Assembly: GCA_004431415.1 (NCBI GenBank)
Contig: QPMI01000393.1
Span: 1 to 64,000 of the forward strand
Reading direction: 5' to 3'
Origin: Cyanophora paradoxa CCMP329
Lineage: Eukaryota > Plantae > Glaucophyta
DNA length: 64,000 nucleotides
The notes under the pieces are model-generated. The model did not search any database and was not told the origin of the DNA. It saw only the letters and a program-made list of their open reading frames with translations. The position numbers and the translations under genes were made by a program. Positions 22,020-63,661 of the stretch are shown here, piece by piece. How positions within the stretch are numbered: position 1 is the first letter of the stretch; each line of letters opens with the position of its first letter.

Positions 22020-22380
22020 CGTGCCGCTCGTGCAGGTTTGGAGTGGAATGGGCTGCTTTGCTGCGTGCGATGCTTCTGGTCGCTTGTGGAATGAGCGGAT
22101 TTTTGCAATTATTGGCCGTGTGACTTGTGTTGCTCGGGATGCCAGCTGACCGCCAAAGCTTCAGCTGACCGCCTAGGCTTCAGCTGACAGCAGCGGAGCG
22201 GCTGTACCCCCCAACAGTACCCCAGTGTAACCCCACTGTAACCCCAGCCACTGCAGCCACAGTGCACCCACCCTGCCACACAGCACAGTGCAGCCAAAGT
22301 GCAGCCATAGGCTCACAGCCGCCACACTGCTTCACCGAGCCACTCTTGCTCTGCAGCAGCTCCGCGCAGGCTTCTGCAAA

Positions 22381-23142
22381 ATGCCTCCACCAGCACATCA
22401 GCTTTTCGACACGCCGGACAACGATGCCGTTCTTGTACAACTTGTCGACTACGACTCGGACGTCGATGAGCTCGATGGCGGACGTGTCGAACTTGCCGAC
22501 GACTCGGGCGTCGATGAGCTCGATGGCGAGACGCTTTCGCCCTATAATGACCTGAACGACCTGTCGATTGAAGTCCCTGGCCATCGCTCGGAAGTTTTCA
22601 GCGCTGGAATCGACACGCGAACGCTCCCCTTCGACCTTGGGCTCGACTGCGCGAGCAAGGGGGATGCATTCTCCTGGCACGATGCGACTGCGGAGCAATG
22701 GTTGGCTGCAATGGAGCTGGCGGCGACGCTGGCTTCACCACGTTCGCCCCCGCCGGCGCCGCTGTCCTCGTACGACGAGATGCCCGGCGAGCAGGCGGAG
22801 CAGACGACGAGGCCTGCGAGCCCGACTCCGGGGTTGTTGGCGTTCGGTGGGCTAATGGATTTGGCTGCATATGCGCGCCTTTCCGCCCCCGAAGCAAAAA
22901 CCCGTCAAGAGCTTCGCATCAGGACCAGCGCGGAAGCCGTCGTCGCTGAGGGCACCACGCCCGCCTACCGTAAACTCACCTCCGCTTTCTGTCGACATGT
23001 ACACAGCATGCTGACCGAGCCCACAGGCTGCTACTGCAAGGCGGAAACGTCGGACAAGAACGCGGGCGGCCATGGCTCTACGAAGCGCAAGGAGGCCCCT
23101 GTTCCCAGCATGGACCGCCTCAAGCGACAGCGAGGGGGATAG
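22381..23142 (+). CDS. Unknown protein, copy B of the inverted paralog pair (internally deleted, intronless)
   Basis: Shares GLLA.GG.MD...AP.AKTRQ..ELR.RT and a near-identical C-terminal ~70 aa with copy A but lacks the middle exon. It also has an internal DS.VDELDG repeat. Confidence 0.55.
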   Translation: MPPPAHQLFDTPDNDAVLVQLVDYDSDVDELDGGRVELADDSGVDELDGETLSPYNDLNDLSIEVPGHRSEVFSAGIDTRTLPFDLGLDCASKGDAFSWHDATAEQWLAAMELAATLASPRSPPPAPLSSYDEMPGEQAEQTTRPASPTPGLLAFGGLMDLAAYARLSAPEAKTRQELRIRTSAEAVVAEGTTPAYRKLTSAFCRHVHSMLTEPTGCYCKAETSDKNAGGHGSTKRKEAPVPSMDRLKRQRGG

Positions 23143-23961
23143 TGATTACAGCTAGGTGACTGCAGCGTGCCCCCACCGCTTTTTTCCCCCCCGCCCCGTG
23201 CTGCTCCTTGCATTTACATTCAGATATCGATGTCCTTTTAGTATCACAGTCTTTGCAGTTATAGCTATTCTTTGCAGCTAGATTAGTACCCATTGCTGTT
23301 CTTTAATTAATGTTTCGAATTCGCAATCGACTCTGCTGTAGGCCTTCTGCTTTTATTAAAAAGCATCACGTTATTGCATTTGTATCATTCAATATCTTTG
23401 TCACAGTGTGATTTGATAAAATCTGTAGATATCATAGTTTAGCACTGCGCTCGGGCTCGAGTTTACCGTAGTACTCGTAAGGTAGTTTACATAGGTCTCT
23501 GCAGTAGACCCGCTGCTCAATTCTTGCAATTGGATAGGACTTAAAAGCTTGCATGTAATTCATTCCGAAGTTCTCAATCTCGCAGTCTAGATCTGGATCT
23601 CTCATGATCAGAGTCTCAGAGTCTAACTTAGTAAACTGGCGCTCGCATGCCATTGCATGCATGTGTAGACTGAGGATCCCGGAGCTTGTACATGTCCAGT
23701 GTCTTTCGAAGCAAATCATCAATGCCATCAGCGGTGAGGCTATTCACTTCTCTTAATCTACGTTACCAATCTCCAGCTGAACTTTAGAAAGGAACAAACA
23801 AGAGCACAAGCTCCAGCTGTGCTACTGGCCCATTGGTGCTGGCCGCAGCTGGGCACGTACGTGAGGTCAAAGCTAGAAGTACACGACGTCAATGAAATAA
23901 GACGCAAAGGAGAGAGGAGAGAAAAGGGGCAGCTGCAGGCGAATGCGTGCGCATGCATGGC

Positions 23962-43705: not shown

Positions 43706-45491
43706 TCAGCTTTCTTCAATTTGCTGTGCAATATACGTAGTGCTCTGAAACCGGCGGGCCTTGGCCATGGCGTGGGGGGCCACGTCGGGGTGCTTCTCTC
43801 CGAGGACCGCCTGCCGCGCCCGCAGGCACGCCATGCCAGCGCATGCCGGCCGAAGCGGAGGCTCAGGGGGGCGCCGGGGGGCGGATCCGGAGGGCTGGGG
43901 AGGGGGACGGCGGGGTGGGGGGTACGCGCCCTGTAGAGGCCCTCCGCCTCCTCGTACCGCTGCCGGCGGGGGTACCTTTGTCAGCGCTCGCCCTGGTCGG
44001 CCCGCCCGGCGCCGCGGGGCGCTCGACCGAGACGCTAGGGCGACCCCCCATCTATTCCAAGCGGGCGCTCCCCTCGAGCTTCCCTCCAGGCTCCCCCGCG
44101 CCCCCCGGAAAGAGGATCTGGCTGCAGCCGGGCCCGGGGCGGCCCGCCCGGCGCGGGGCGGCGCGGGGGTACCGCTGCCGGCCGCTGAGCGCTCGCCGGC
44201 GCGGCGCGGCGCTGGACCCAGGCGCTATGGGCGACCTCCTATCCATCCCCAGCGGGCGCCCTCCTCCATCGCGAGCTCCCCCCGGCCGCGGCCCCCCCGC
44301 GCCCCCCGGAAAGAGGGTCTGGCTGCTGCCGAGCGGGAAAGGCGGGCCTGCGCGGCGAAGTGGAGGCCGGCGGCGTCAATAACGTTGCTGAGGGAGCTCG
44401 CCGTCTCGGGGTGCGAGGCGCCCAGCGCCCCCTCCCGCGCCCCCCGCGACCGCTGCGAGGGTGGGGGGCGCCCGCGCATGAGGGGAAGCCGCCGCTGCCG
44501 TCATCGGAGGCCGCGAGGTTGGACGGAAGGAGCGCCCTCGGGCATAGGCTCTAAGAGCGCAGGGGCCGCGGGCCCGGGGCCGCTCGCGGCCGGCAGTAGG
44601 GGCCCGCGAGGCTACTAAAAGCGCCTGCGGTGCTACTGGGAGCGCCCTTGGGCCGCGGACGGCGGTGGGGGCCAGCGGGGCGTGGCGGGGCGGGCACGTC
44701 GTAGAGGGTGGAGGCTTCGTGGAAGTGCCCCTGCGTGCCCCGCGGTTAGCCGGCCGGGCGCCTCCAGGGCGCGGCGCTGGGGCAGCTGGCTCCGCCCCGC
44801 GCGCCCCCCGCCGCCTCCCGTGCAACCGAATACGAAGCTCCTGAGCACCCAAGTCTAAGCTTAGACCTAATCCTCAGCCTCCGAGACGGACCTGGGCGAA
44901 GCGGAGCTTGCCGAGGGCGTTCACCGAGGCCGCCGTGTCCGGGTGGCAAGCCCTGCGGGGGGGAGAAAGGGTGCCGCCGCCGCTCAGGCCGAGGGAGCGG
45001 GGCGGAAGAGAGAAAGGGCGGGGCGGGGCTGTGGGCAGCCGTCTCCCAGAACTATATATACCCGGATCTAAACCAAGAGAGGAAGGGGAGAAAGGCGGGC
45101 GTGGCGGGGCGCGCGGACCCGAAGACGGCCTCCCTGACCTCGATGGCCCGCTGCGCCCCCGGCTCAGAGAGAGAAGGGGCGAGGGGCCTAAAAATAGCTG
45201 GGGGAAGGGGGGGTAGAGGTGCCTGCAGGAGCGCCTCGGCCTCCTCGTAGCGCGCCTGCCACGGCCTCAGATCGGCGGGGGGAGGGGGGGGGGAAGGGGG
45301 CGCGCCTGGGCGGTGCGGAGGCGGCCCATGGCGGTGAGCGTGCTCGCCACGTCGACGTCGGGGTGCGAGCTCGAGGGCCTGCGAGCTCGAGCAAGCCGGG
45401 GCGGGCCGGCTTAGAAGGGGGAGGGGAGAAGGAGGATGGGGCGGGGTACCCAAGGGCGCAGCCGCAGCGCTTTCTGCGCGGCGCAGAGCTC
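43706..45491 (-). pseudogene. TPR (kinesin-light-chain/TPR_12-like) gene, degenerate and 5'-truncated at the viral insertion
   Basis: Exons: DVASTLTAMGRLRTAQ/ARYEEAEALLQ/RAIEVREAVFG, HPDTAASVNALGKLRFAQ, ALGASHPETASSL, RYEEAEGLYR, VLGEKHPDVA. No start codon is found before the switch to AT-rich sequence. Confidence 0.6.
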
Positions 45492-45536
45492 AGAAGGAGG
45501 AGGAAAATAAAAGCAGCCATAGGGCGAAGCCATAGG

Positions 45537-45633
45537 GACACATATGTATAAACTTATTTAAATCCCTCGTTCATCTCGATCGCTTCGCGATCTCGATTCA
45601 CTCAGGATTTAAATAAGTTTATACATATGTGTC
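45537..45633 (-). other. 97-nt terminal hairpin: 29-bp perfect stem, three tandem GA/GA mismatches and a GCGAAGC apex on the minus strand
   Basis: 45537-45565 is the exact reverse complement of 45605-45633. The inner part reads cTCgtTCatcTCgatcgc-ttc-gcgatcTCgatTCacTCa. Confidence 0.9.
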
Positions 45634-45943
45634 AAAATTAATACTAAAATACGTATTTATCGATTAAATTCTTTAACTTTTTATGCAAATTTTGTATAAA
45701 TTAATGCAAACTTTGTATTAAAAATGAAAAACGCGTTTAACTTTATGCATATTTACGATTGCATCAATTGATCTTATATCGATTGATTATGTTCTTTGTC
45801 GATTACATATATAACTGCGATAGATTAACATTAAACTACTTAAAGATCGATATAATCGCGATTAAATTGCATAAATTCGCATAAACTCGATATATCTCAT
45901 CGGTATTGAAGTAGACCACCGCCCATTGTGTATCGAAAAACGC

Positions 45944-46203
45944 AAAAAGTGTCACAGAGTTGCATTGTGTCCAATTGAACAATCGATGAGATTGCTGATT
46001 TGCATTTTTGCACCCAAAAACTGTCACAGAGTTGCATTATCTCCCATTAAACAATCGATTAGATTGCGGGATTTTCTATTGGAATATATCGGAACTGCAT
46101 TATGTCCAATTAAACAATCGATGAGATTGCGGATTTATATTTTAGATTGAAAAAAGTGTCACAGAGTTGCATTATCTCCAATTGAACAATCGATTAGATT
46201 GCA
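45944..46203 (+). repeat. Four ~50-bp direct repeats (AAAAGTGTCACAGAGTTGCATTATCTCCAATTGAACAATCGATTAGATTGC consensus) with ~20-bp variable spacers
   Basis: Copies near 45944, 46015, 46093 (partial) and 46150. Confidence 0.85.
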
Positions 46204-46315
46204 TATGTTCTATAAAACAGAATAATTGAGATCAAGTGTGACAGGTAGTATTCAAATGATATTCAGTAAGAGATAGTTTTGTTTTTGAGAAAGTCAGTAA
46301 GAGGGGTGGAATGTC

Positions 46316-46418
46316 TGTGACGCCTGTGACGGCTGTGACGCCTGTTTTCAGAAGTCTGTCATTTTTGAAAATTTTAAAAAGTTTGAAAGTAGGTGTCACA
46401 GGCGTCACAGGCGTCACA
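46316..46418 (+). repeat. Inverted-iteron module 1: (TGTGACGCC)x3 - AT-rich core - (GGCGTCACA)x3
   Basis: 103 bp, read directly from the sequence. Confidence 0.9.
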
Positions 46419-46606
46419 CTCAATTAAATTAGGTGTCACAGCGAAATTGCAGACCATTTCCAGTAAGACAACTTCGCATTTTCAAAAAGGTTGATTAATG
46501 GATAGTGTTTTGTAGGTGTCAGAGGTGTCACAAGACGGATTTCAGTAAGACAAGAATATATTTTCGAAAATCTCAGTAAGAGAAAGAGATTCCATTTTTA
46601 ATTGGG

Positions 46607-46709
46607 TGTGACGCCTGTGACGGCTGTGACGGCTGTTTTCAGAAGTCTGTCATTTTTGAAAATTTTAAAAAGTTTGAAAGTAGGCGTCACAGGCGTCACA
46701 GGCGTCACA
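46607..46709 (+). repeat. Inverted-iteron module 2, near-identical to module 1
   Basis: 103 bp with the same AT core, TTTTCAGAAGTCTGTCATTTTTGAAAATTTTAAAAAGTTTGAAAGTA. Confidence 0.9.
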
Positions 46710-46942
46710 GTCAATTAAAGAGGCGTCACAGTCAATTAAATAGGTGTCACAAGACGGATTTCAGTAAGACCATCTGAAATTCTGAATATCTCAGTGTCAA
46801 CTAACTCGGAAATCGCAATACTCTATGTTTCTCCGATTTCTCCAACCCTGAAAACACACCTGTTATTCTCTCATCTATCTCATGAGATACTCTCGTTTCG
46901 CCAAAAATTGACAAACGATTTCCCATCATGCTGTAAAGGAAA

Positions 46943-47210
46943 GATGCCGATTAACCAGCAATATCACAATTTCCATGGGACTTACATCTTGATTGTGAAT
47001 AGAATGCAAGATCATTATGAGATCTTTCAAGAGATGGGATTGCGAATTACAAGGAGATCAACTCTTTGTAGATTCTTGAAAAGGAATGGTGCTAAATGGG
47101 ATAAGACAATTCGCCGATGGTATACAGAAGATCCAAAGAGTCCCCTTCTTAATATTTTCGAGACAGATGGAGAGTTCTTCTATCAGGATCGGTTTAATCA
47201 TTACCAATAG
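46943..47210 (+). CDS. Small viral protein with a DUF5710-like motif
   Basis: LKRNGAKWDKTIRRWY resembles the DUF5710 GAxWDxxxxxWY motif. Confidence 0.45.
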
Positions 47211-48125
47211 CCAGAAACTCCAACTGGAATGAGTTGTCAATCCCATTCATGTCTACAAGATCACCATAATAATCTCGAAACTCAACTGTTAACTCTCTAA
47301 TCACCAGGTTTCGATCGGTTATTTTTATGTATTCACTGTGCTCTCCACTGTGATAAACATACTGTCCAATATCTTTACTCAATTGCAATCTGAGAATCGC
47401 CCCTTGATTCTGTGGTTGTGATCTTGGGACAATATTGTGGTTTGTAGCAAATGGGGAGAGTTCTTTAATGTGCATGTATAAATACTGTTCTGCATTCATG
47501 TCTGTCATCTTGGATGCTTCTAACTTGTAGTTTAAGCGAGATGCCTCGAATTCATATCCTGTGAATGTGATTCCCCATTGGGGATGGTTTGGGGTGATTG
47601 GGATTCCTGCAAAATAGAGGAAATTCTCGGGGCATATAAAGACCTTGCAGACTCTGGGAAATCGTAGGTTTGCTCAATTGAAGCGACCCACTCCACAGAA
47701 CTAACCCCAAGAAGTTTACCCAATCTCTGTGTAGATGCTACCATCTCGAATTGAACATTACTGTAAAACTCCAATTTGTAGGAAGTAGGGTTGTAGTAGA
47801 CCTTGAATGCATATGTGAGATTGTTGCTTCCAGTAAAGGTGAAATTCAGACCATAATTATATGGACTGGTGACCCCGAAATGCCCTTGATTAATATAACC
47901 ACTTGGGAGAAGGTATACCTGTTTGGTTTCAGAGATGCCTTGGTAGTAGAATCTGACAAGAAGGTGATCTGTTCCAATGGAGTTATAGATGCTGTTGGGG
48001 ATTTCTGCATACAAAACTCGACATTCTCTTGGTTTAGTCACTGGGGTTGTGAGTGAAACTTTGTAGGAGTTTTCTATTTGTCCATCTGATCGGTCTCTGC
48101 TATCTATATTGACCAGCCGAATCAT
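47194..48125 (-). CDS. Minor capsid/penton-like protein 1 (one frameshift near 47530-47610)
   Basis: N-terminal IDSRDR...VLYAEIPNSIYN and C-terminal YLYMHIKEL..LTVEFRDYYGDLVDMNGIDNSFQLEF are typical of PLV/NCLDV single jelly-roll penton proteins. Confidence 0.75.
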
Positions 48126-48153
48126 TTTAATATATGTTTATAGATAAAAGAAG

Positions 48154-49162
48154 ATGCCTGTGGATTACATCGAAGTGAGCTCTTTCAATACAATTTCGGG
48201 AGATGGACCAACTTCGAGTTTTATTGCTCGCCTCCCCAGCACCTATGAATTTGTGAGAGCAGTAAGACTGGTTTCAGCAGAATTTTATAACAGCATTCCC
48301 ATGGTGAGTGGTGAAACCAAAGTAGGAGATGTGACAATTGATAATGCAATCTACCTTTATTGGTCTGAATATTATTCTGGTGCAGGAAGCACTGGTATTC
48401 CAACTGATCGACCTGCTGCTGATTATGAATCATGGAAACACATTGTGATAAGTCGCAGCACACCCATTCAAAACCACCAACAACTGGTGAATGTAATTAA
48501 CTCCAAACTTGCATTGAGAGAGCCACCAGTAGCAATTCGCTGTAAATGGGATGATACACTGAAACGAGTAATATTCCATTCCACCATACCGTTTTACCTG
48601 GCTTTCTCAACTGCAATAAACCCAACCCAGGCGCAGATTCAGAGGTTTTTGAGTTCTGCTCGACTGCTTGGTCTTGATCCTGGGAGATATGGTAACACCC
48701 CAATCCAATCACAAGTTTATAATACTCTGACTGATGGTATCTTTACTGGGTCGATGGTGCATGGTATCATATCTTCATTTGAACCTGAAAAGACCAGGAT
48801 AGTGTTCTGTTTGTGAGAGTAAAGGAGTTGGGTGATCTGGTTCAATGTGGTGATGGTCTCCTCACTGGATATTTCCACAAAATCGTTGTTCCAGATAAAG
48901 ATTATGGTGAGCATGTCGTTTATAATTCGACAGAAGCCATCCGATTTATAAATACTATAACAAGAATCTGGGACTTTCCACATTTTCGGTTGATATTGTG
49001 AATGCAGTTAATGAACCAATTGATTTCGAGGGTCAACCTGTCCACCTCACCTTCGAAATTCGATATGGTGATGAACCTGCTGGTGATCCTGTGTACGAAT
49101 ACTTCAAGAGGAGAATGGCGGAAACACATCCATCTTATCCGGTTATTGCGAATTTTGCGTAA
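48154..49162 (+). CDS. Minor capsid/penton-like protein 2 (two frameshifts)
   Basis: SSFIARLPSTYEFVRAVRLVSAEFYNSI..ARLLGL..CLRVKEL..FSVDIVNAVNEPIDFEGQPVHLTFEI follows the same motif series as penton 1. Confidence 0.65.
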
Positions 49163-49216: not shown

Positions 49217-50589
49217 ATGGATATTACTTCGACCCTCCAACGTCTTTCTCTGAAAGAAGCTCTAACAACCCCGGAAGAAGCCAAGGCGTTCTTCTTGGAC
49301 AACTCTCTCATGCTTGGTCTTGAATCCAAGTCGAAGCCAGTTCTTGTTGTTGTGAACCCAAGCAACACTTTCGAGAATAATGCTGGAAATCGCATTTCTT
49401 TCAAGCTCCCTCGCTACAATTTCTGTGGAAAACTCGAACTTGCGTTTGACCTTCCAGCTGTCACTTTTGCTGGTGATACCGACCTTGTTCGCAATGGATA
49501 CGTTCGCCCAGTTGGTGCTCTTGTCTCTCGACTTGAAATTACCTATGGATCTTACACCTTCCATGTGCCTTCTGATTTCCTTGCTCATTTCCCTCTTATC
49601 TATTACAGTGAGGATCAACTCGCCAAGAAGAAGCGTTCAATGGGAATGGTTCATGGTATCCCTGCCCATGGAACCAACCGACTTGGTGGGTCATTTTTCA
49701 CTGAAATCCCAGTCCCATGGCTAAACCACTACCTACCTCTTGGTGCTCTCTCAGGAGAAATGGTGGTAACTGTCTGGTTCAAGGATGCTGGAAAGGGTTA
49801 TGTTGAGACTTCTTATGGTGGTCGTGCTCTTCCAGTTGTTGGTGGAACAGCTGCTGATAAGACAGAGGATGATGGACTTGGTGCTACTGCTAATGCTACT
49901 CTTGCCCATGTTGGTCAACAGATCACCACTTTTGGAATTGGTGCAACAACAACCCCGAAATTAAAGTCACTTCTCCTCGTCTTTACATGCATGCTATTAA
50001 TGTTTCTGATGAACTGTTTGCTACTGTCATTGAGAAGGTGAAGACCACTGGTATGGCTATTCCTGCTCTGGATATTGGTTTTGTTGACAGTGTCAATTTT
50101 GCTGCAAAAGGCAATGCTCAACCAAATCGTATTAACCTGTCACAGATCTCTGGTCTTGTCTATGGTCTTCTTGTTTCAGTTCGTGATGCCGCAGGTATTG
50201 ATGGTTTCAATGGTTCCCACAGTGTCCTAAAAACGCATGCTAACTCAAAAGACATTACTTTCACTGTTGAAATTAATGGTCAACGTCTCTATGCTACTGA
50301 GCCCATCCCTCTCCTCAAAGGTGCCGAATTAATTGCGGATGCCTTCAAGTGCTCGAATATGGACAAGGTTGCAGACAAATATGTCCTCAGTGGTCTACCA
50401 TTCTGTGTTGATGGAGAGAAAGCGATTCGCAACATTGCCCAGTCTGGCTATGTTGATCTCACGAACTCCTCCTCTTCTTTCCTTACTCTATACATGCCTT
50501 CTGACCAGACAATCACAGTTAATGTTCGTGCTCTCATGCACAGTTTCATTATTGTTGACAAAGATGGTCTTCGTCGCATTAATCTGTAA
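49217..50589 (+). CDS. Major capsid protein, double jelly roll (frameshift ~49960-49990)
   Basis: About 450 aa, beta-rich: GNRISFKLPR..LELAFDLP..LVSRLEITYG..IPVPW..YLPLGAL..EMVVTVWFK..SGYVDLT..VNVRALMHSFIIV. It sits between the pentons and the ATPase. Confidence 0.75.
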
Positions 50590-50651
50590 AACCATTATCA
50601 GTAACGTTTCGTTATTTTTATCTATCTTTAATAAGAAAGATCTACAAAGCC

Positions 50652-51433
50652 ATGTCTGACGTTCCCGAATTTAATGCTGCTGAGATGATTAACCCCCTTT
50701 TCGCGTATTAGCAATCGGAAAAAGCGCGACGGGCAAGTCAGAAGCCGTAAAATATTGGCTAAAACAACTTCACGATGCGAAAAAGTTAGATGTTGTTCTT
50801 GTTATAAGTGGGACATCATTCAATCATTTTTGGGATGATGTCGCAACATTACAGCTCGGTAAATGGGATGCGCCTTACATCGCTAAACTTCTCGATGAAA
50901 GACAAGAGAAAATTGAGAAAGGAGAACCCGTTAATCAATTATGTGTTGTTCTCGATGATCTTATAGACAATGAGATTGTAGACCTTACCCGTGATAAAAT
51001 TATTGGATCTCTGTATTCGCGCGGCCGCCACTCGGCGATTACAATTTTCTGCATAACTCAGAAACTGCGTAAGGTTTCTTCAACCATTCGCGTCAATTCG
51101 GATTATGCAATGTTCCTCAGTGCCGCCAATCGCAAAGAACTGGAAGCCATTGAAGAAGAATACAATATCATGCGGGATAAAGACGCTTTCTATAAGATGT
51201 TTGAGGAATACGTTCACTCCTATCAGTTTCTCATTTGGAGTTCTGCGAATTATTCGGTGGAATACTACGTTGATAAAGCGGAACTCGTTAAAGACTTTAA
51301 GTTTCCTCGGTTCCACAGGAAGCCCAAAAAGAAAGAGGACGAATTACCACCTCCACAGAAAGAGGAAGCCCCCAAAGAGGTCAAGAGTGGTGTTCATTCG
51401 AATAAACTGATGCGATATAAGAGAGGTTTATAA
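50652..51433 (+). CDS. A32-like DNA packaging ATPase (frameshift in the homopolymer near 50695)
   Basis: Walker A VLAIGKSATGKS, Walker B CVVLDD, SRGRHSAITIFCITQ and IRVNSDY. Most of this frame is missed by the ORF track. Confidence 0.9.
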
Positions 51434-51461
51434 AATAATCTCTGCTTCTAATAAATATACA

Positions 51462-52196
51462 ATGCCTTCCAAACGCAAAGTTGGTGTTCCTGCTGGTGCT
51501 ATGTCATATTCTGCATCCTCTGGAACCGGTTCTATTAACACAGAGCCCATGAAATTCAATGGTGTCAATGAAGTTAAAGCATCACAGCAACAAGAAGATC
51601 CCCTCAATGCTGCTTACGAAGAATCACCAGATGATAAAGCGCCCCAGACATCCACCAGTGATCAACTCAATATTTCGCCCGAAACCTCTAAGATGAAGGC
51701 AGTTGGTGAAGGTGCTCGTCGAATTATTGGTGCTGCTGATGACAAAGGACTGGGTCTCCAAGATCTCTCACTTGCTCGCAAAGGTGAAGGTGTCTCCAAG
51801 GAATCAGACAAGGTAATTCAATCCATGGCTGGTGAGGTGACCTACAAGGTCGCACCTACACAGAATATCCACCGAATTCCCAAAGCCCAATGGGACGAAA
51901 TGACTGCGAAACTGAAAGATCTGGAAGCGAAATCCAGTGCTCTTGAACAGTATGTCTCTGAGAAGAAAGAGAGAGCGAAATTGAAGGAGATGCTGCGAAA
52001 GGAGGTGTATAGAATGGGAATTACTGGTCTCCCAGATAAGCAATTCATTGGTAAGAAAGAGACTCAAATTGATGAGCAGGCAGTTGATGAGATGAAGACG
52101 AAAACCCAGAAGGGCACCATTGAACCTGGTGCTACCAAAGCAGAGGTCGACAAAGGTGTTGCCCCCACAGTATATAAACGACGAGTATGGCTTTAA
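51462..52196 (+). CDS. Hypothetical Lys-rich viral protein, 244 aa
   Basis: Intact ORF with an AT-rich upstream context and a coiled-coil segment; no family recognised. Confidence 0.7.
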   Translation: MPSKRKVGVPAGAMSYSASSGTGSINTEPMKFNGVNEVKASQQQEDPLNAAYEESPDDKAPQTSTSDQLNISPETSKMKAVGEGARRIIGAADDKGLGLQDLSLARKGEGVSKESDKVIQSMAGEVTYKVAPTQNIHRIPKAQWDEMTAKLKDLEAKSSALEQYVSEKKERAKLKEMLRKEVYRMGITGLPDKQFIGKKETQIDEQAVDEMKTKTQKGTIEPGATKAEVDKGVAPTVYKRRVWL

Positions 52197-52223
52197 TTAT
52201 CTCGCATTAAGAGAGAGAGCATC

Positions 52224-52457
52224 ATGGATTTCTTGCGAAAAATCATAGAGATGTTTAATCTCCACATTGTGAGCAATTGTCACAGTGGCTGCTGTGATAC
52301 AAAAGTCGAAATCGAATTCTCTGACACTGAAAGTCATGGATCTGGTGGTAGGCGATTATCCACAGACTCGGTGGATTTCGAGGAGCATATTAAAACAGAG
52401 ACTGTGAGGCGACGCTCTGTATCTTTCACAGATCCGAAATTAAATCTCGGTAATTAA
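52224..52457 (+). CDS. Small viral protein (HIVSNCHSGCC motif)
   Basis: Intact 77-aa ORF directly after the previous gene. Confidence 0.55.
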   Translation: MDFLRKIIEMFNLHIVSNCHSGCCDTKVEIEFSDTESHGSGGRRLSTDSVDFEEHIKTETVRRRSVSFTDPKLNLGN

Positions 52458-52657
52458 TATCGAATGCTCAGTCTCTCTGAGATCTATGCTATCCTTGAAA
52501 GGAAATCCGCTGAATATGCAACAGAAGACGCAATAAAAAAGCGTAGACAGGAACTGGTCTCGATCTGCAAAAAATGACAAGGGATTTAAGGGTAAGGTGT
52601 GTTTGATTGGTGAACCGGACAAATTATTTTCTCGTCCCATTATAAGGAACATATCAA

Positions 52658-52885
52658 ATGGAAACTGAATCTGTGGTCGAATTCGAACTTGCAATGAGCG
52701 AGGTGGATCCCAATGAGAGGAAAAGGTTGTATGACCGCTTGTATTTCCAGAAACGCTATCAAGATGAGGAATTTCGAGAATTATATCGTAAAAAGGCACT
52801 GGAACGATATTATCGCAGGAAAGCTGCTGAGATGGATCCCAATAATCCAGTGAAACGCCCAGTAGGTCGTCCCAGAAAATACTGA
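52658..52885 (+). CDS. Small basic AT-hook DNA-binding protein
   Basis: KKALERYYRRK..KRPVGRPRKY; GRPR is the AT-hook core. Confidence 0.7.
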   Translation: METESVVEFELAMSEVDPNERKRLYDRLYFQKRYQDEEFRELYRKKALERYYRRKAAEMDPNNPVKRPVGRPRKY

Positions 52886-53078
52886 ACCGCCCCAAAGTCC
52901 CAGATATCCGCTGAATCCTTTTTGTTACCATGATCAATCGACTTTTCGATGGATCATTACCATACATCGAGCGCCAATCGGAGAACCCAAAGGTATTTAA
53001 AGGTTAGGCGCCAAAAAATGACAAGCGACCGGAGAAATTAATTTCTCCATTAAGGATAAGAAGCCCCCGATTGTTGAA

Positions 53079-55441
53079 ATGAACGCTGCCGCCAAGAAAT
53101 CCCTGAAACGCCTTGTTGAATGGCTTCGTGAAGACGATGTCCTGTCTGAGAATATCGTTATTCCTGTTGATCCTGATACCAAAAAGCCACTTTTCGCTCA
53201 TAAAGACGGAACCTGGTCTTGGGATAAATTCGATGAAGCCCTGAAATCCGGTAAATATACTGCTTGGGGCATTCTCGCTCGTAATATCCTGGTAATTGAC
53301 TTCGACCAAGAGGAGGATTTCGCCAAATTCGAGGAGCAATTCCCTGATGATTTCGGTGGTGTTAATCCTCTTGCTAAAACCAAAAAAGGATATCATGCAT
53401 TCTTCGCTCGACCTGCTGAATTCGACACCATTAAGATCTGGGATAAAGCGGGTGCATTCAAAGGAAACCCAAGATCGACTGCAAAACGATTGCATCCACT
53501 GGGACTGCTGGGGTGATTAATGTTTGCCCCAGTCCCAACAAAACATGGATCAGAGAGCCATGGGCATCTGAGTGTGAGTTAAATGAACCCACTGCTGAGT
53601 TGCAAAAGTGGATTGTTGAAAACTACGAATTCCCCAAAGGTGCACATTCTTATTATGCAAGGTGCGCTGAGGAGAATTTGCAGAAACATATTCTTTCTAA
53701 ACTCGAAGAATTCGGTTTCATCTTGCCCACAATCATCAATGAGACCAAGATGGGATACAATTTCACTGCTGAGAACAAAGGTCTGGTCTGTCCCTGCTGC
53801 AAGGGAAGCCATGACTCGAACAATTGGTATATTGTTCAAGGGAAGGAGAAGGACAAATATATTGTTTCGAGTTACAGTGCAAACTGCAAGAAGCGACTTA
53901 TCACAATTCGTGTGAAGGAAGAGACAGATGCGAATATCGAAAATCTGATTGATCGGTCTGCTGGATCTGATGGTGCCCATTATGATGTTGCACAGGTTGC
54001 CTATCTTGTTCTGCAAGACAAATACAAGTATTCCAACAAGACCTGGTTCAAGTTCAATGATGTATGTGGGATTTGGGAGATGGATGAAACTGGGAAGCGA
54101 ATCTTTCTCTGTTTGAGCTGCAAGGTCTGTCCAGTTTATCTTCAACGTTCTGTTCAACTCGCACAGAGAGCTCTTCGTGATGAAGAGAACCGCAATTCCT
54201 TGGAGGAAAGGTCAAAGATTCTGCTGGGAATTGCTAAGAGCCTCAAACAGACTACATACAGAACTGCACTTATGTCTGATCTTTCAGTTCTGTTCAGTGA
54301 CAAGACCTTTTTCGAGAGACTTGATACTGTTCCCAATATCATTGGATTCACAAATGGTGTGTTTGACTTGAACTCCATGACTTTTCGAAAGGGACTCCCA
54401 GATGATATGGTGAGCAAGACTGTCGGCTACGATTATACCACAGAAATCGACCAAGAGAAGGTTGCAAAGATTAAATCCATCTATGCAGACATTATTGAAT
54501 CGGATACAGACCGCGAATTCATGCTGGGATTAATCGCCTATGCCCTGAGTGGTTTGACAGAAAATCAGAGATACACTTGCTGGACTGGAATTGGAGCAAA
54601 TGGGAAATCACTGCTCCAAGAGTTGGTGAAAGACACATTTGGTGAGTATTATGGGTCACTGGACATGACATATTGGACTAAACCCAAGAAGAGTTCGTCA
54701 GAGGCTTCCCCAGAACTCGCTTGCATTCTTGGTAAACGAATTGTTTTCAGTAATGAAGCAGAAGATGGTGACATGCTTCAACTGAACAAAATCAAACAGG
54801 TTACTGGTGGGAATGAGATGAAGGTTCGAGCTCTTTTCAAAGATCTTGTTACATTCATTCCCATGTTCCAGTTGTTCTTGTCCACAAATGACAACCTGGG
54901 AATCAGTAAACCAGATGCAGCAATCCAAAGGCGAATTATCTACTACCGATTCGAAAATGTCTTCAAGGTCGATCCTCAGCCTGGTGAGAAGAAAGCAGAT
55001 ACCACTCTAATGCGCCTAATGAAGAATGATGACGATTATAAAATGGCGCATATGTCCATTCTCCTGGAAATGTGGAGAACCCATTCTCTCAATGAATTCG
55101 TCACCAAACCACCCCAGTCCATTGTTGATCAAGGTGTTGAATATTTCAATGAGAATGACAAGATTGGAGAATGGATTCGTGAGAGTTATGAACTCACCAA
55201 GAGTCAAGGGGATTTCGCCACAAGTGAGTCCATTATCAGTCACTTTAAGATGGATCACATGGGCAAATATGATGAGAAAATCACAGAATGCACTATCTTG
55301 AAGAGACTTCGCGAAGTCTTTAATGTGAAGGCTGAGAGAAAGCGAGTCAATGGTGTTCTTGCTCGTGGCTACTTTGGGATCAAAAAGAAGCATAGTCGCA
55401 AGTTGGTGGATGACAGTGATGTTGAAGGTGGGGATGAGTAA
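53079..55441 (+). CDS. Primase-polymerase (AEP/PrimPol-type) fused to a D5-like SF3 helicase (frameshift ~53465-53515)
   Basis: ILVIDFD (DxD), KTKKGYHAFF, Zn-like CPCCKGSH, D5_N IGFTNGVFDL..FRKGLPDDM, Walker A TGIGANGKS, IVFSNE, KQVTGG, FLSTN, RRI. Confidence 0.9.
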
Positions 55442-55539
55442 ATAAACAGAATCGATTCTAATACTGATTGAATTTCTTATTTTTTAAAAACCTTACTGTA
55501 AATGGTTTGTGTGACAGCTGTGACACCTTTTTAATTGAG

Positions 55540-55642
55540 TGTGACGCCTGTGACGCCTGTGACGCCTACTTTCAAACTTTTTAAAATTTCAAAAATCTAC
55601 AAACCTCTGAAAACAGGTGTCACAGGCGTCACAGGCGTCACA
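55540..55642 (-). repeat. Inverted-iteron module 3, inverted relative to modules 1-2, ~100 bp downstream of the helicase stop
   Basis: 103 bp: (TGTGACGCC)x3, core CTTTCAAACTTTTTAAAATTTC.., then (GGCGTCACA)x3. Confidence 0.9.
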
Positions 55643-55794
55643 CCCAATTAACCACAGACTCCCCCCTGTGGGTCGATGACTTTTTCGATTCTTTATCGGA
55701 CAATATAAAAACGTATCGTAAATCGGTGTGTTTTGACAAAAATTGACTGGCGATTTAAGGGATCATTGCGTTTTCCCTTTGACTTTGACAGAAC

Positions 55795-55986
55795 ATGGAT
55801 TATTTCGACGAAATTCAGCGGCAGCTGGTCGAAAAGAATGATATTGCAGAGGTAGCGGAATATATTGCAAAGATCAGAGCCAGTAATGGTATACCATATC
55901 AAAAGAAGCGATTGTATGCAAGCAGACTCGACACAGTAAATGTATATGTCCCCAAAGGCACGAATGTGCGAATCATTAGAACCTGA
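55795..55986 (+). CDS. Small hypothetical viral protein
   Basis: 63-aa ORF upstream of PolB. Confidence 0.4.
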   Translation: MDYFDEIQRQLVEKNDIAEVAEYIAKIRASNGIPYQKKRLYASRLDTVNVYVPKGTNVRIIRT

Positions 55987-56042
55987 AAAATGCGAAATGC
56001 GTTCAAATTGCCCAAAAATAATATGTTCCCTTAAAGTAAAAG

Positions 56043-59000
56043 ATGCCCCGCCAATCCAATAGAATCATCAAAGAAAAGAAAAACGAAATACTCGGTCTTT
56101 TAGGAACCCTTTTAGTCACTGGTGATATTACAGAATTCGAATATGATCGCCAGGCAGCAATCCTGGATAGGAGACCAAGGTTATCTCAACTCACAGAAAT
56201 TACAAATCGCCTCTATGATCGTTTTGAGAAAATGGAGGAATTCAGGGATGAAGGTTTAAGGTTGGGAACAATTGAACCCGAGATTGAGGATGGGGAAGCA
56301 ATGAACAAAGCATATTCTTGGTTAACCTATCGAGCAAGAGGGGAGGTTATCCAAGATGGGATTGAATTCTTGGAGAGAATTGCAACTACTCTACCTCAGA
56401 GACTCAGACAGAAACTCCAAGACCTGAGAGCAATTAAGACTCGGTTGACCTTCATCTGTAAATTCACCAAAGTGAGTGATCCAAGGGTGTGGATCACCAA
56501 ATTCATTTACAGTGATTACTTTGTCATCACAAGATCACGAAATATTGATGTTGAACTGCGAAATGCCCTTCAATCTATGCAGGAACAGATGATGCAGGTT
56601 GACAGTTACAGACTGGATCGCATTGAGATGCTGAGAGTGGTAATAATGTCTTATGCTCCTGTGGGTGGTTGCTTCTTCTCAACTCCTGAGTGGATTGGAT
56701 CAAAGAGAGCAACTGTGAATGTGAAGAATATTGATGGTCAAGACTGCTTCAAGTATGCAATCTTGGCTTACCTGCACCGAAATGATATTAATAAACACAA
56801 GAGCAATGAACCCAGCCAGTATAGAAGATGGTTAAACGAACTCAATTTCGAAGGCATCCAGTTTCCAGTTGCCTGTGATGCAGAGGTTATTGATCGATTT
56901 GAGGAGCAGAACCCTGAACTGAGTATCAACATTTATGGTGCAGATAATCAAGCACAGTGTTTCTATCCTCTCCATCAATCCAGCAACCCAGGAGAAAGAC
57001 CAAGATTAACCTTTTATTAATCGAAAACGAAGAGGATGATAGAGGGCATTATATCACCATCATGTCTCTGAGTAGACTTCTGAAAACCACCTTTGATAAA
57101 GCCCATGATGGTCGCATCTATTACTGTGAGACCTGTCTGTCTCGTTTCAGAACTCAGGAGAAGCTGGATGTTCATATAGATGCGAATCGTTGCATTGATT
57201 GGAGGGAGAGCAAAGGTAAATGCCCGAAATCTGGAAGTCACATTGCATTTGGGCTTCAACACCTTCGCAAAACTGTGTGGCTTCCCACTATCTGCTATGT
57301 GAAAATGGACAGTCACTCGGTTCCAATTGATGAGAACCGCAGTAAAAGAGAGGTCAAATCGGTTTCTTTAACAGTTGTGATGGGGATGAGGTGATCTCTC
57401 ATTATTTCGAGGGATCAGATCCACTTGGTGCTCTGTTTACCACTCTCACAGAGATCAGACCCCAAGTAATCCGCACTCTATTCACCAATATTCCAATGCA
57501 CCCACTCACAGAAGAGCAGAAAGCACAATACAAGATCACTAAACACTGTTATATCTGTGCTGAACGATTTACCCATGAGAATTTCCCAGTGAGAGACCAT
57601 TGTCATCAATCAGGAGCTTTTATTGGAAAGCATGTCGAAACTGCAACCTCCACAGGAGAATCTCAAAGCAAACGAAAGTAGCAATTGTGGTAGATCACAT
57701 GGATGAATGTGGACACGAAATATTCCGCAAAATTGCACAGCAAGATGATAAACTTCGTGTTGAGATCCTGAGCAAGAATTTCGATCAATACCTCTCCCTG
57801 CAATGGGGCATGTGGAAATTCATAGATGCTTCGCATTTCATGGACTTCCAGGCAGTGGATGCAAGTGATCTAATGGGTAAATTCCAGACATTCCGAGAAT
57901 TGGCGTTTTCCCAATATGGATTGGATCCTGCCCATTATGTTTCGGCTCCTGGATTATCCTGGGATGCAATGCTAATTTATACCAGAGCAAAGATAGAGCA
58001 GATCAGTGATGTAGGGCAATACGAATTTATTGAGAGGGCAATTCGAGGTGGGTTTGCTACAATGCCTACTCGATATGCAAAGGTGGAAAACCCAGATGAC
58101 CATATAGTTCTCTTGGATGCAAATAATCTGTATGGTTATGCTCTCAGTCAAGAACTGCCCATTGGCGATTTTCGATGGGAAGATGTCACAGAGGCACTTA
58201 AAGAGACCCAAGGACGAAGTGCCTTTATTGAAGTAGACCTGGAATACCCACAAACTCTCACAGATCATTACGATTTTCCACTTGTAGTTAATAAAGAACA
58301 TGTCACCACCGAAATGCTGGGTGGGTATCAAAGAAAGTTACTGGATATCACAGGTGAGAAGATAAGCAAAGACCCCAAACTCACAGCAACATTCACACCC
58401 AAAACCAATTATGTAATCTCCCAACCTCTCTTGGTCTATCTTGTGAGCAAAGGTATTACTATTAAGAAGGTTCACAGGGTGCTCTCATTTGCAACCTCTG
58501 CATTTATGAAGAGTTACATTGATCTAAATACGAAACTGAGGCGACAATCTGCGACCAGATTCGAGAGTGACTTCTTTAAGTTAATGAACAATGCAATCTA
58601 TGGTAAATGCCTCGAATCATGCAGGGGTCGATCTGTGGTGAAGATTGCTAATAGTGAGAAACTCTGCAAGAAATATGCTGCAAGTCCACTCATCAAGGCG
58701 ACCAATGTATTAAACGAAAATGCTGTTGCCTTTGAGATGTATTCCAAGCATGTTCACTTAGATAAACCAGTTGCAATTGGGGCTTTTGTGCTGGATTTTG
58801 CGAAACTCCATAATAGCAGGTTCTTTTATGATGTGGTGAGGAGAACTTGGGAAACAGCAGAGCTACTATTCCATGATACAGATTCTTTCTGTCTACTGCT
58901 GCATACCAATGATCTAAATAATGAGATGAAGCGAATTTCTGAACACCTGGATTGCAGTAATTATGATCCTGCTCACCCTCTCTTTGATAGGAGCAATCGT

Positions 59001-59320
59001 TTGATTCCAGGTAAATATAAAAACGAGTTTCCCAATGCAAAGATTGTGGAGTATGTAGGTCTGAGATCGAAACTCTATGCTTTCAGAACTGAGACCTTTG
59101 ACAAAATAAAAATGTCTGGAACCTCCTCAAAAGAGGTTACTTTGATGATTTCAAGAGATGCCTGTTTGAAGGCATCACCAAAACAGTAGCAGTAGTAAAC
59201 AAGCGAAGGCAAGACCACAACCTATATGATTTGGAGAGCAGAAGGGTGGCTCTAAACCAACTCGATAGCAAAAGGAAGATATTAGACGATGGAATTCACA
59301 GCATTCCATTTGGGCTCTAA
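56043..59320 (+). CDS. Polinton-type protein-primed DNA polymerase B (about four frameshifts)
   Basis: NVKNIDGQDCFKYAIL, CYIC..VRDHCH.SG..ACRNCNL, GLDPAHYVSAPGLSWDAML, IRGG, LDANNLYGYAL, KLMNNAIYGK, HDTDS, GLRSKLYA, DSKR.I..DGIHSIPFG. Confidence 0.92.
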
Positions 59321-59503
59321 TCTACTTCATTGATCTTTCTTTTTCTTTGGTTTCGCTCTCCAAGAAGTAACAAACCGCGAATTAAATGCAGCAGCCATAT
59401 ACATCTTAATCCTGGATCATTGGGCTCAATTGCAAAGTAGTTGGGAATTGTGTTCTCCTTCCACACAGAGTCTTGCATTTATTATATGAGAGATAAGGTA
59501 AAG

Positions 59504-60903
59504 ATGCCTTCTACACAAATAGGATTGAGACAACCACCAAGAATTGTGAGAAAAGAGGCAATTGAAGATCGAGGGAATATTCTGCCCATCACAGTTCCAG
59601 TGGAGGAGAAGAGCAGTCGAATATTGAAAAGATCAGAGATGGTCAAGCAATTAATCCCAGAGACCCTCCCAGCTGAGACAGCACCAAAAGAGTCGAAGAT
59701 TGCTAAGAAGTTCTATGATCCCAGGACAGGCTACAAGGGATTTACTGCAATGAGACAGGAACTACCAGAGGAGAACTACAAGAAAATGAGAGAATGGTAT
59801 GATAAGCAGGAGGTTGTCCAAATTAATGCACCTACCCTATCTCGAAAGAGAGATCCCATGATTCCAATTAGGCAACCCCTTGATACATATGTGATTGATC
59901 TGCTCTTCTTTCCTGCATACAAAAAGCAGAATGATGGTTATGATACATTTATGAGTGCAATGGAATCAACCCTGAGAACAGGGTTCATTATTCCAATGAG
60001 AGACAAAAGTGCTCTTACTACACTTGCAGCATTCAAGCAACTTGAACAGAGAGTCCCCAGACCAATTGTTCGCATTCAGAGTGATAGTGGAAGCGAATTT
60101 ACCAATGTGTTATTCACAGATTATTTGGGAACGAAATTCATTGAGCATCAACTAAGTGATGTTGCAGATCACAGAACCCAAGGTCGGATTGAAGCCTTTA
60201 ACAGACAGATCAAGAGATTAATCACAAACTACTGCATTGCAAATAATACTGCACGATTTTTTGATGTGTTGGGTGATATTGAGTATAATTATAATAATAC
60301 CATCCACTCTGCAACCAAGAGAAAACCAGCAGAGACCACAGAAGCCCACTACAAAGAGATAGTGAATATGGAGGATCAGAGATTCAAGAAATCGATTGAG
60401 TATCTTGATGCTCTGAAACCTGGAATGTTTGTGAGAGTGAAAGTTGAAAAGAATCCATTTGCAAAGCAGGGTGTTAATTGGTCTCGAATTGTTTATAGTG
60501 TGGAGGGCAGAGAGGGCTTCAAATTCAGAATCAGAAGTCCCAGTGGTGAGATAGTTGATGGTAGATTCGCTTTTCATGAACTGCTTCCCATTAAAGGTGT
60601 TGAGTATCATGAAACTCCCACAGTGGATGCCCTTGAACAGGCAAAAGAGGAAGCCAGGGTTGATTCAGCAATCAGAAAGGAGGGCATAGAAAAAGCAAGT
60701 GAAGTTCCAAAAGAACCCTCACAGAAGCAAGAGCACAAAAGAAGGGCAGAGTAGAGAAAGAGTTGAAGAAGTTGACCATAGCAGGAACCCAGAAATTATC
60801 AGAAGTTAACAGTCAGAGATGGTATAATGACTTTTCAACCACCAAGGAAACATATACTGCACCCCAAACTCGATTTAATTTACGAAGTGGTCAGAGGAAA
60901 TAG
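59504..60903 (+). CDS. RVE (retroviral-like) integrase, Polinton c-integrase type (late frameshift ~60720)
   Basis: DDE triad YVIDL / IQSDSGSEF / RIEAFNRQIK, then YNNTIHSAT..P, G..VRV and NWS..VY.V; no chromodomain seen. Confidence 0.9.
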
Positions 60904-61311: not shown

Positions 61312-61413
61312 GGAGTTTCAGTGATGTTTCGGTGAAGTTTCGGTGCGAAGTTTCGGTGAAGTTTCGGTGTGAAGTTTCGGTGAAGTTTCGGTGAAGTTTC
61401 GGTGAAGTTTCGG
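61312..61413 (+). repeat. Tandem 11-bp repeat GAAGTTTCGGT (about 8-9 units)
   Basis: Read directly from the sequence. Confidence 0.9.
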
Positions 61414-61442
61414 TCAATAGGATAATTCTATAAATCGAAAAA

Positions 61443-61670
61443 TGGTTGCGCGTCATCGCAACCATCATCGCAACCATGGTTGCATCATCGCAACCATCAT
61501 CGCAACCATGGTTGCATCATCGCAACCAGGTCGCGCAACCACTCAATCGGGAAAAAAATGGTTGCGCAACCACTGAATCGGAAAAAAATTGGTTGCGCAA
61601 CCAGGTTGCGCAACCAGCGCAACCATGGTTGCATCATCGCAACCATCATCGCAACCAGGTCGCGCAACCA
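61443..61670. repeat. Direct and inverted CGCAACCA / TGGTTGCG repeat cluster
   Basis: Many CATCATCGCAACC and TGGTTGCGCAACCA units around two A-rich spacers. Confidence 0.85.
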
Positions 61671-62119: not shown

Positions 62120-63661
62120 TCATACACTTCGAATAAATGCACCTGTCACATCCACTCTCATAGTTGGGGCATTTATATATACCAGTGGATAAATACGAAT
62201 ATACCTTGTCCTCAGAGGGTAGCCAATATAGAAAACGTCTCTAATAGAGGTGGGAAACCCAGAACTGTATGAGACATCACCACTATTGTGGGCATTATTA
62301 ATGGTTTCACACATGAACACTCTATTCACACCTTCATACTTGATAAATGACCAGGAAACACCATCTTGTGATGTTGCAACATTGAAGGTCTTAACAAAGG
62401 CATTGGTCACACCAGAACCATATGCAATTATAGATGCTATCTCAAATATATATGGGAAGGATACTTGGAGATACTCAGTGGGAACACTCCATATCCCATC
62501 AGGAGCAGATGCATTTGCCTCCCAACCTGTTAAAGAAGGTCTTGCTTTAAATGCCTCCCTTCCAATTTTCGATGATGAAGCAGTGAATGCACCATCTGAC
62601 AGAAGATACCAGTTAGCATCAATGGGAGGTATGTTATTCAGAGTGGATGATATATAGAATCTTGCAGGGTTCTTAATTTCATAGTTTGCAACCAGTAAAT
62701 CACAAAGTCTATCAATCATTACACTGTTTGCTGCTATATACATTTCGGTTGCATCTATCATATCTGGTATCTTAGAGGTATCATCCAGAGAGTTTACTAT
62801 GGTCTTTGGAAGTGGAACAGAGAGTCTATAATATCTTGCATATCCTTGGTCATCATTATATGGGAGAAACTCTTGCATCTTTTCCAGGGCTGAGAGTTCA
62901 CTTGCAGCCATCAACATATTAATTAATGGACTCCCAGAGGTCGAAGCAATCCAAGAGAGGATACCCCAGCTGTTCACATCTTCATAGGAATATCCCACAT
63001 TGGGGGCATCTGTTTCATTAACCTCACCACAGGATATACTGATCACAATTATATCATCATCATCATCATAGATCTTCTTAGCATGGCTGTAACCACATAC
63101 ACTGGGATTGTTATTACCTGAGATTGCACCATCAATTAGAGACATCCCATCATAGTTCACAGGTGAGAAGTAAGTAGGAGCAGCAGAGGTGGATCTTGCA
63201 GCAATCTTGCTGGGGATGGATTTGTAGAAGTTATCATTGGTGATAAAGATGGGCTTCATACTCACAGTATCAAAACTTGTGATCACCACATCTTTTAGAG
63301 AGTCTTGGATGAGAGACTCACCAGTAACAGTGAGAATGGCTGTCTCCAATGGGGTCACATCATACTTGGTGTTGAAGAGTGCATTATCTATAATATTTCT
63401 GGGATTTGCAAAGATTAAGGGGAGTTGATTGAGATAAGTTGAATGCAAATCGGTTGCAGTGAGTTTGGGTTCGTTTGGAAATTCGGGATTTTTCACATTG
63501 AGACCAATCGCAATAATCCCACCAGTGGATGTTCCACTCACCAGGTCAACAAGGTCTATTACTCTTTTTCCAGTTCGAGTTTCGATTTCTTTTAGCAATC
63601 TCGTAATAATTATACCACGAGCTCCCCCACCTGAGAGACTGAGAATTACACGAAGGGGCAT
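62120..63661 (-). CDS. Patatin-like phospholipase fused to an F5/8 type C (discoidin) domain, intact 513 aa
   Basis: LSLSGGGARG, GTSTG, ARSTSAAPTYF and DGA motifs. C-terminal FTASSS..EYLQV..FVKTFNVATSQDGVSW..TRYIRIYP..MRVDV is discoidin-like. Confidence 0.9.
   Translation of the reverse strand: MPLRVILSLSGGGARGIIITRLLKEIETRTGKRVIDLVDLVSGTSTGGIIAIGLNVKNPEFPNEPKLTATDLHSTYLNQLPLIFANPRNIIDNALFNTKYDVTPLETAILTVTGESLIQDSLKDVVITSFDTVSMKPIFITNDNFYKSIPSKIAARSTSAAPTYFSPVNYDGMSLIDGAISGNNNPSVCGYSHAKKIYDDDDDIIVISISCGEVNETDAPNVGYSYEDVNSWGILSWIASTSGSPLINMLMAASELSALEKMQEFLPYNDDQGYARYYRLSVPLPKTIVNSLDDTSKIPDMIDATEMYIAANSVMIDRLCDLLVANYEIKNPARFYISSTLNNIPPIDANWYLLSDGAFTASSSKIGREAFKARPSLTGWEANASAPDGIWSVPTEYLQVSFPYIFEIASIIAYGSGVTNAFVKTFNVATSQDGVSWSFIKYEGVNRVFMCETINNAHNSGDVSYSSGFPTSIRDVFYIGYPLRTRYIRIYPLVYINAPTMRVDVTGAFIRSV

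Follow-up and report, generated by a model that had tools for sequence, protein, structure and literature searches.

The element and its boundary with host DNA

The window analysed here, 64,000 nucleotides of the Cyanophora paradoxa CCMP329 contig QPMI01000393.1, has a GC content of 65–75% in its host DNA and of ~41% from ~45.5 kb to its end. The low-GC part encodes a double-jelly-roll capsid protein, an A32 ATPase, a protein-primed family B polymerase (pPolB) as well as an alternative replicase, and an integrase (Table 1), the set of genes that marks Polinton-like viruses (PLVs). Judged by this gene content it is an integrated PLV, of which the left 18.5 kb is visible.

Table 1. Features of the element's left end and of the adjoining host flank (positions in the window)
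Feature	Position	Strand	Remarks
Host flank with 10-bp direct repeat (45515/45528)	45515..45537	+	Single-copy depth, outside the element
Terminal imperfect palindrome, 95 nt	45538..45632	-	Element's 3'-OH is at this end of the minus strand; predicted to fold as G·A hairpin
Outer arm, 28 bp	45538..45565		AT-rich, starts 5'-ACAC
39-nt centre	45566..45604	-	T·G pair, then three tandem GA/GA
Tandem GA/GA positions	45602-03/45567-68, 45598-99/45571-72, 45593-94/45576-77	-	From the pair table
GCGAAGC mini-hairpin apex	45582..45588	-	
Inner arm, 28 bp	45605..45632		Exact reverse complement of the outer arm
Rest of likely terminal repeat	45633..46896		AT-rich, including 72-bp tandem units (45942-46202); inner limit putative
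Mirror-image block, iteron-like	46316..46418		9-bp TGTGAC repeats
Second mirror-image iteron-like block	46597..46719		
Major capsid protein (MCP), double jelly roll	49217..50589	+	Two overlapping ORFs; 56% and 65% identity to P0001
A32-type packaging ATPase	50693..51433	+	Pox_A32 E 3.9e-7, above cut-off; Walker A
Prim-Pol (AEP) and D5-like helicase	53079..55441	+	Two ORFs; PHROG primases
Internal iteron-like copy	55531..55651		Directly behind the helicase gene; candidate origin, function putative
pPolB region	56043..59189	+	Three ORFs; DNA_pol_B_2 E 3.6e-14 on the third
rve-type DDE integrase	59441..60754	+	rve E 0.0018, below cut-off; PHROG transposase E 2e-11

P0001, a Cyanophora paradoxa protein according to its source, has a structural model (pLDDT 59.7) that matches the PBCV-1 MCP (Vp54) with E 2.4e-17 and iridovirus MCPs with E ~1e-17. 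In the replication genes the D5_N match (E 3.6e-10) lies above the cut-off and the Prim-Pol match (E 2.6e-4) below it. The N-terminal ORF of the pPolB region has no PDB match that would reveal a terminal-protein domain, its model is unusable (pLDDT 35) and its look-alikes are unnamed eukaryotic proteins; we take the Cys motif in this ORF, which starts at 56043, to resemble vOTU. The ORFs at 47194–48816 match no family. Family searches revealed no maturation protease in the visible part of the element and neither an HUH nickase nor a resolvase in the visible 18.5 kb, the scanned ORFs have no match to Tap or Tpg families, and GC skew along the element gives no clear origin signal. The capsid, primase-helicase and pPolB genes (49217–59189) are each broken into two or three ORFs, by decay or by assembly error.

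The boundary was defined from contigs of two sequencing runs aligned to 45505–45664. Their depth is 53.5 and 32.1 as far as 45534, and 5255 and 4708 starting at 45541. Alternative flanks are also found, one joining the element at 45538 and another at 45535 via three shared G. Since the depth jumps and the alternative flanks join there, we place the start of the element at 45538, so that, by the depth step, the palindrome directly adjoins host DNA at the very end of the element. The depth jump also shows that this is a many-copy element, summed contig depth not being taken as copy number, and the element was found in 20 of the 21 sequencing runs among those listed. High depth continues until ~46900, with a loose end behind 46896 in 4/4 runs; from the left boundary and the depth, a terminal repeat of ~1.36 kb is likely, its right counterpart being outside the window.

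A sequence-only reading of this locus had placed a second GCGAAGC hairpin, at 45517–45537, beside the terminus as part of the viral end. We reject this candidate, which lies in single-copy host flank beyond 45538. Its fold reaches −2.8 kcal/mol (z −1.37, with 23 of 200 shuffles as good), both of its mismatches are single and not tandem, and it derives from the 10-bp direct repeat at 45515/45528. It is absent in the two other flanks listed, and GCGAAGC as such occurs in the window 20 times against 20.2 expected.

Some further features were observed along the window. ATCGAT is found seven times within 568 bp (45633–46200) vs three times in the 17-kb interior, and these sites are likely to be binding sites. 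A second repeat region with units of 11, 12, 31 and 32 bp (61314–61660) sits between the integrase and lipase genes, the latter (62120–63661) encoding, within the element, a fusion protein of a patatin-like phospholipase with an F5/8 type C domain. In host DNA, at 20965–23156, a 226-nt inverted repeat (94%) surrounds 1.7 kb and may represent a non-autonomous transposon.

Fold of the terminal palindrome

The minus strand of 45537–45633 folds at −33.8 kcal/mol (z −13.5, none of 200 shuffles as good), with a pair table consisting of a perfect stem, T·G, three GA/AG steps and a GAA loop. The hairpin described in the sequence-only reading thus stands as to its stem, its three GA/GA mismatches and its GAA apex, but not as to a 29-bp stem or a fixed G·T pair: within the element the stem has 28 bp, the additional pair G45537:C45633 using a flank base, and the G·T pair varies among copies, as described below. 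For the plus strand, which the sequence-only reading had held to be the weaker partner, the pair table lists C·A, then TC/CT loops three times and finally a loop of TTC. It nevertheless folds at −31.9 kcal/mol (z −13.1), and for the 95-mer the difference between strands at 37 °C is only 0.8 and 1.9 kcal/mol of ~32 with the two parameter sets used. The computed energy is dominated by the 28-bp stem, and nearest-neighbour models can be expected to under-count sheared pairs; the strand asymmetry in stability that these models predict is small.

All six GA dinucleotides are in a Py-GA-Pu context (TGAG, TGAA, CGAG, CGAG, TGAA and CGAG), and no other hairpin on the two strands of the 64-kb window combines a GNA loop with tandem GA. 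With the geometry kept and the mismatches redrawn from the base composition of the element, six ordered G·A mismatches on one strand have a chance of 7e-7, or 6e-8 if the loop is included, both being post-hoc figures. As far as the accessible parts of these papers go, the Py-GA-Pu arrangement gives tandem sheared pairs by NMR (PMC10085684), DNA is destabilised by a single G·A but not by two (PMC11014236), and for a pyrimidine triloop the stability is noted to equal that of the complementary GNA loop (PMC5449611).

The G·A motifs and the GCGAAGC loop sit on the strand whose 3'-OH is the end of the element. Because the minus strand ends at 45538, the G·A strand carries this 3'-OH, fully paired in the fold. 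The arm-end sequence is identical on both strands, at 45538 and at 45632. A search for RNA elements in 45400–47000 gave 14 Rfam matches at E ≤ 1, none of them at gathering score.

Variation among copies

Variation was read from assembled contigs only, in which letters are partly hidden and from which rare forms are dropped. In one variant of the arm (run X1, loose end before 45556) 5 of 12 left-arm positions differ from the window, and the pieces concerned (depth ~6) have a window-like centre with one other letter. The loose end before 45638 in run X6 is the exact reverse complement of this variant arm, all five changes being matched; the match was made by eye and joins left and right arms from different runs, not from one copy. 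Compensatory changes in other copies, as anticipated for a selected fold, are therefore seen in this variant (5/5, arms from two runs), which indicates that the stem keeps its pairing rather than its letters.

A variant of the centre was found in both of two runs, from two studies, as a 17-letter loose end after 45568 and a 20-letter one before 45605. Each of these contains two tandem GCTTCGC, which are GCGAAGC repeats on the minus strand, and from the edges of the loose ends we infer at least three GCGAAGC units. On the minus strand the GCGAAGC run is flanked by purines and A·G replaces T·G; as judged from its letters, the variant could fold either as three mini-hairpins or as one stem with purine–purine mismatches. 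A contig of depth 796 (X6 record 16) leads from the variant centre through the arm into the interior of the element, in the orientation of the window. The deepest centre (X6 record 15) has 11 differences and no gaps, including 45604 A>T, its other letters being hidden. Subtraction from X1 records 2 and 7 suggests that these changes would cluster to either side of the outer ladder, with the apex left unchanged. T at 45604 dominates the depth in 4/4 runs, which together with the A·G of the tandem-GCGAAGC variant shows that the G·T pair is not a constant of the structure. Of the 45 pieces 16 were listed, together with 8 loose ends, and none of these has an inverted (flop) centre, which is weak to moderate evidence for a single orientation.

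The earlier proposal of selection on a single-stranded fold is thus supported by the ordered Py-GA-Pu mismatches, by their position on the 3'-ending strand and by a sister centre that, with unrelated spacing, is again made of GCGAAGC on this strand, and we are confident that the fold of the 3'-ending strand is selected, a core that is common to several of the readings discussed below. Could the palindrome instead be a by-product, left by a fold-back repair that happened by accident, or does it serve as a hairpin promoter or as a landing site for primase whose place at the end is incidental? An accidental origin is raised for comparable palindromes in the accessible text of 10.64898/2026.07.28.741278, GNA mini-hairpins act in N4 promoters and at sites where phages and plasmids are primed (PMC13037366, accessible part), and G·A ladders are found in unrelated phage and Rep-bearing contigs. 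An accident, however, yields neither six ordered Py-GA-Pu G·A mismatches nor a second centre of like chemistry on the same strand, and we regard these possibilities as very unlikely. The GCGNAGC mini-hairpins of phage G4, RSF1010 ssiA and the N4 promoters share the apex chemistry, being nuclease-resistant and poorly bound by SSB, but as described in the available portion of PMC13037366 they serve prokaryotic replicons for priming or as promoters at internal positions rather than at the ends of a genome.

A proposed cap for the 3' end

What is the role of the fold then? End protection or priming is likely. We tentatively favour a reading in which the palindrome is the left end of a PLV whose 3' strand folds into a G·A cap and docking site, and in which the end is completed by protein priming in a manner resembling Streptomyces telomeres; the reading is drawn from integrated copies of the element. 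The free linear genome would replicate from the iteron-like blocks with the help of the primase-helicase, or by pPolB strand displacement, exposing 3' single strands, for which lagging-strand run-out from an internal origin would be one route. At the 5' ends, where a terminal protein would be attached, no cap would be required. On the exposed 3' strand, and on that strand only, the G·A ladder and the GNA loop would, by their known chemistry, nucleate a fast and nuclease-resistant fold, rebuilding a 28-bp duplex that is the same as the genome end without a panhandle, while the mismatched 39-nt centre would keep the chromosomal duplex from behaving as a perfect palindrome. Terminal-protein-primed synthesis would copy the end from base 1, in which case the orientation would never invert. 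A trimmed 3' end could be repaired on the inner arm, keeping the arms exactly complementary, and the integrase would transfer the same 3'-OH to host DNA.

This cap is suggested by mismatches that are ordered beyond chance, unique in the window and in Py-GA-Pu context, by the sister centre with GCGAAGC on the same strand and no inverted centre among those listed, and by the presence of both pPolB and Prim-Pol/D5 genes in the element. Fold-back repair of trimmed 3' ends would explain the exactly matched arm changes, and a cap combined with protein priming would preserve the orientation without any extra enzyme. Polinton pPolBs carry terminal-protein and vOTU domains, according to the accessible part of PMC11161782. 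Jumping-back initiation (PMC5175343) would fit the template end, which is 3'-TGTG here; the 5'-ACAC end may suit it, a weak point, as such an end is expected 1 in 16 times by chance. Against the cap stand the small computed difference between strands (0.8–1.9 of ~32 kcal/mol) and the fact that, in the accessible text of 10.64898/2026.07.28.741278, the palindromes of Halocafeteria go mostly with non-pPolB replicases. Moreover, a 3'-OH that is fully paired could readily act as a primer, which would hinder protein priming, and the cap requires that its run-on extension be blocked.

The same paired 3'-OH is the starting point of the main rival to the cap, in which the folded end primes its own extension in a parvovirus-like manner and asymmetric resolution leaves only the G·A orientation. 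Here the template continues from the 3'-OH into the genome, the matched arm changes fit one arm being copied from the other, and hairpin priming has been proposed for Halocafeteria (10.64898/2026.07.28.741278, accessible text). Simple resolution, however, would invert half of the ends, and none is inverted among the records listed. One orientation would under self-priming need an asymmetric nickase, as in parvoviruses, where resolution of the MVM-type left end is asymmetric and the flip form alone is reported (PMC1185569, as far as accessible), and the visible 18.5 kb revealed no HUH nickase or resolvase. We therefore consider self-priming unlikely. The left-end hairpin of autonomous parvoviruses, as described there, resembles the Cyanophora end in its 3' fold-back, its GA-containing mismatch and its one orientation. 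Parvoviruses differ in their ssDNA genome, NS1 HUH nickase and single-jelly-roll capsid, as opposed to the double jelly roll and no visible HUH protein here.

Alternatively, the fold might chiefly be a tag by which the integrase or the packaging ATPase recognises the end. Because the end is palindromic, a single nicking specificity, cutting both strands just behind the arm, would set free a virus whose 95-nt 3' overhang is always the G·A strand, which agrees with the same arm-end sequence being present on both strands, at 45538 and 45632. Integrase and A32 genes are both in the element, and in vaccinia the hairpin mismatches serve packaging and virion maturation, not replication (PMC8956199, accessible part). 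Sheared G·A pairs, however, minimise extrahelical bases instead of exposing them, and two very different centres are tolerated, so that a tag seems distinctly improbable.

The least probable of the readings that we considered is a poxvirus-type covalently closed flip/flop telomere, with the integrated palindrome representing an opened hairpin. It would be in keeping with the D5-like primase-helicase and A32 ATPase, found also in hairpin-ended large DNA viruses, and with an AT-rich stem containing mismatches; indeed, poxvirus telomeres share with the Cyanophora end an AT-rich, incompletely paired terminal hairpin and these two genes (PMC8956199, in its accessible part). But both strands of a closed telomere must fold, and poxviruses have flip and flop ends, whereas here optimisation is confined to one strand and the records listed (8 loose ends, 16/45 pieces) contain no flop form.

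Comparison with known genome ends

The closest systems are the end palindromes of endogenous virophages (subtypes 1, 2, 5 and 6) and a PLV (subtype 4) of Halocafeteria seosinensis (10.64898/2026.07.28.741278). In the accessible text, these also lie at the extremity of an integrated PLV or virophage with an rve integrase, and a replication hairpin is proposed. They differ in length (52 nt in the figured subtype vs 95 nt here) and in going mostly with non-pPolB replicases, whereas the Cyanophora element has both pPolB and a primase-helicase; the main text does not mention strand asymmetry, G·A pairs or GCGAAGC.

In sequence pattern, the Cyanophora end shares with Streptomyces telomeres a GNA loop and G·A pairs on the 3'-ending strand. 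In the accessible parts of PMC4513846 and PMC5449611, Streptomyces 3' overhangs form GNA loops with a sheared G·A as closing pair; Tap binds these overhangs, which undergo fold-back repair. The folds are likewise on the 3' strand, with GNA loops and sheared G·A, and in a single orientation; fold-back 3' repair, an internal origin and protein priming are further points in which the Cyanophora element may be alike. Streptomyces telomeres, on the other hand, consist of several short palindromes over ~170 bp vs one 95-nt fold here, and belong to a bacterial system with Tap and Tpg, to which the Cyanophora element has no match among its scanned ORFs; here, too, the 3' end is buried in a 28-bp stem. 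The Cyanophora end therefore at most works like a Streptomyces-type telomere and is not a member of that class. A full eukaryotic counterpart, in which internal iteron origins leave 3' overhangs, one-strand G·A caps protect them and a terminal-protein polymerase patches the ends, is possible but in our view rather doubtful.

If such a counterpart exists, Polinton-like viruses would have a third strategy for replicating their ends, one that may stand between protein-primed ends and the hairpin telomeres found in giant viruses. If the cap reading is right, eukaryotic viruses, actinobacterial telomeres and parvoviruses would have arrived independently at capping 3' ends with sheared G·A, and in these elements sheared G·A motifs would betray single-stranded phases at the sequence level. 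The one-strand fold is predicted for a 95-mer, natural variants preserve its chemistry and three candidate enzymes (pPolB, primase-helicase and integrase) are encoded in the same element, which makes this end a cheap and sharp test case.

Occurrence of the design in other sequences

The sequence-only reading was not aware of any description of such structures for Polinton TIRs. This needs qualification, as palindromic PLV and virophage ends have been reported; the G·A/GCGAAGC design itself was not found for PLVs or virophages in the literature searched, which included few subscription papers and no Halocafeteria supplements. Nor are such PLV ends described in the accessible parts of PMC11296320, PMC12085832, PMC6061790, 10.64898/2026.10.13.758929 and 10.1101/2022.07.28.501842.

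Searches of viral contigs gave no match to the exact apex pattern, and no confirmed copy by way of the helicase and MCP loci. The ladder-spacing pattern had 74 matches in viral contigs, none of which combined the ladder with a long outer stem (0/74), and the stricter Py-GA-Pu pattern kept 9 viral contigs, all with short ladders that lack a stem. A degenerate arm pattern matched prokaryote genomes 24 times, in no case with a second arm or GCGAAGC, and these matches were dismissed as chance. Seven loci from a metagenome pattern were likewise set aside as prokaryote-type G·A arrays; neither of the two that were read for ORFs is PLV-like. Since G·A ladders with GCGAAGC are thus also present in unrelated phage and Rep-bearing contigs, we regard the GCGAAGC/G·A ladder as a generic single-strand module, the new part being its use on the 3' end of a PLV.

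These contigs deserve mention in their own right. Nine viral contigs (L075–L083) have a GA/GA ladder with a GCGAAGC apex, eight of them in near-identical surroundings. In L005 the ladder (2001–2029) lies ~160 nt upstream of a gene for the large subunit of terminase on the opposite strand, and it is possible, going by this placement, that in tailed phages the ladder is a packaging or origin signal. The metagenome contigs L084–L090 contain one-strand GCGAAGC/CGAG ladder arrays, and L088 carries a REP_ORF2-G2P replication protein, in line with such ladders being employed by replicons that pass through a single-stranded phase.
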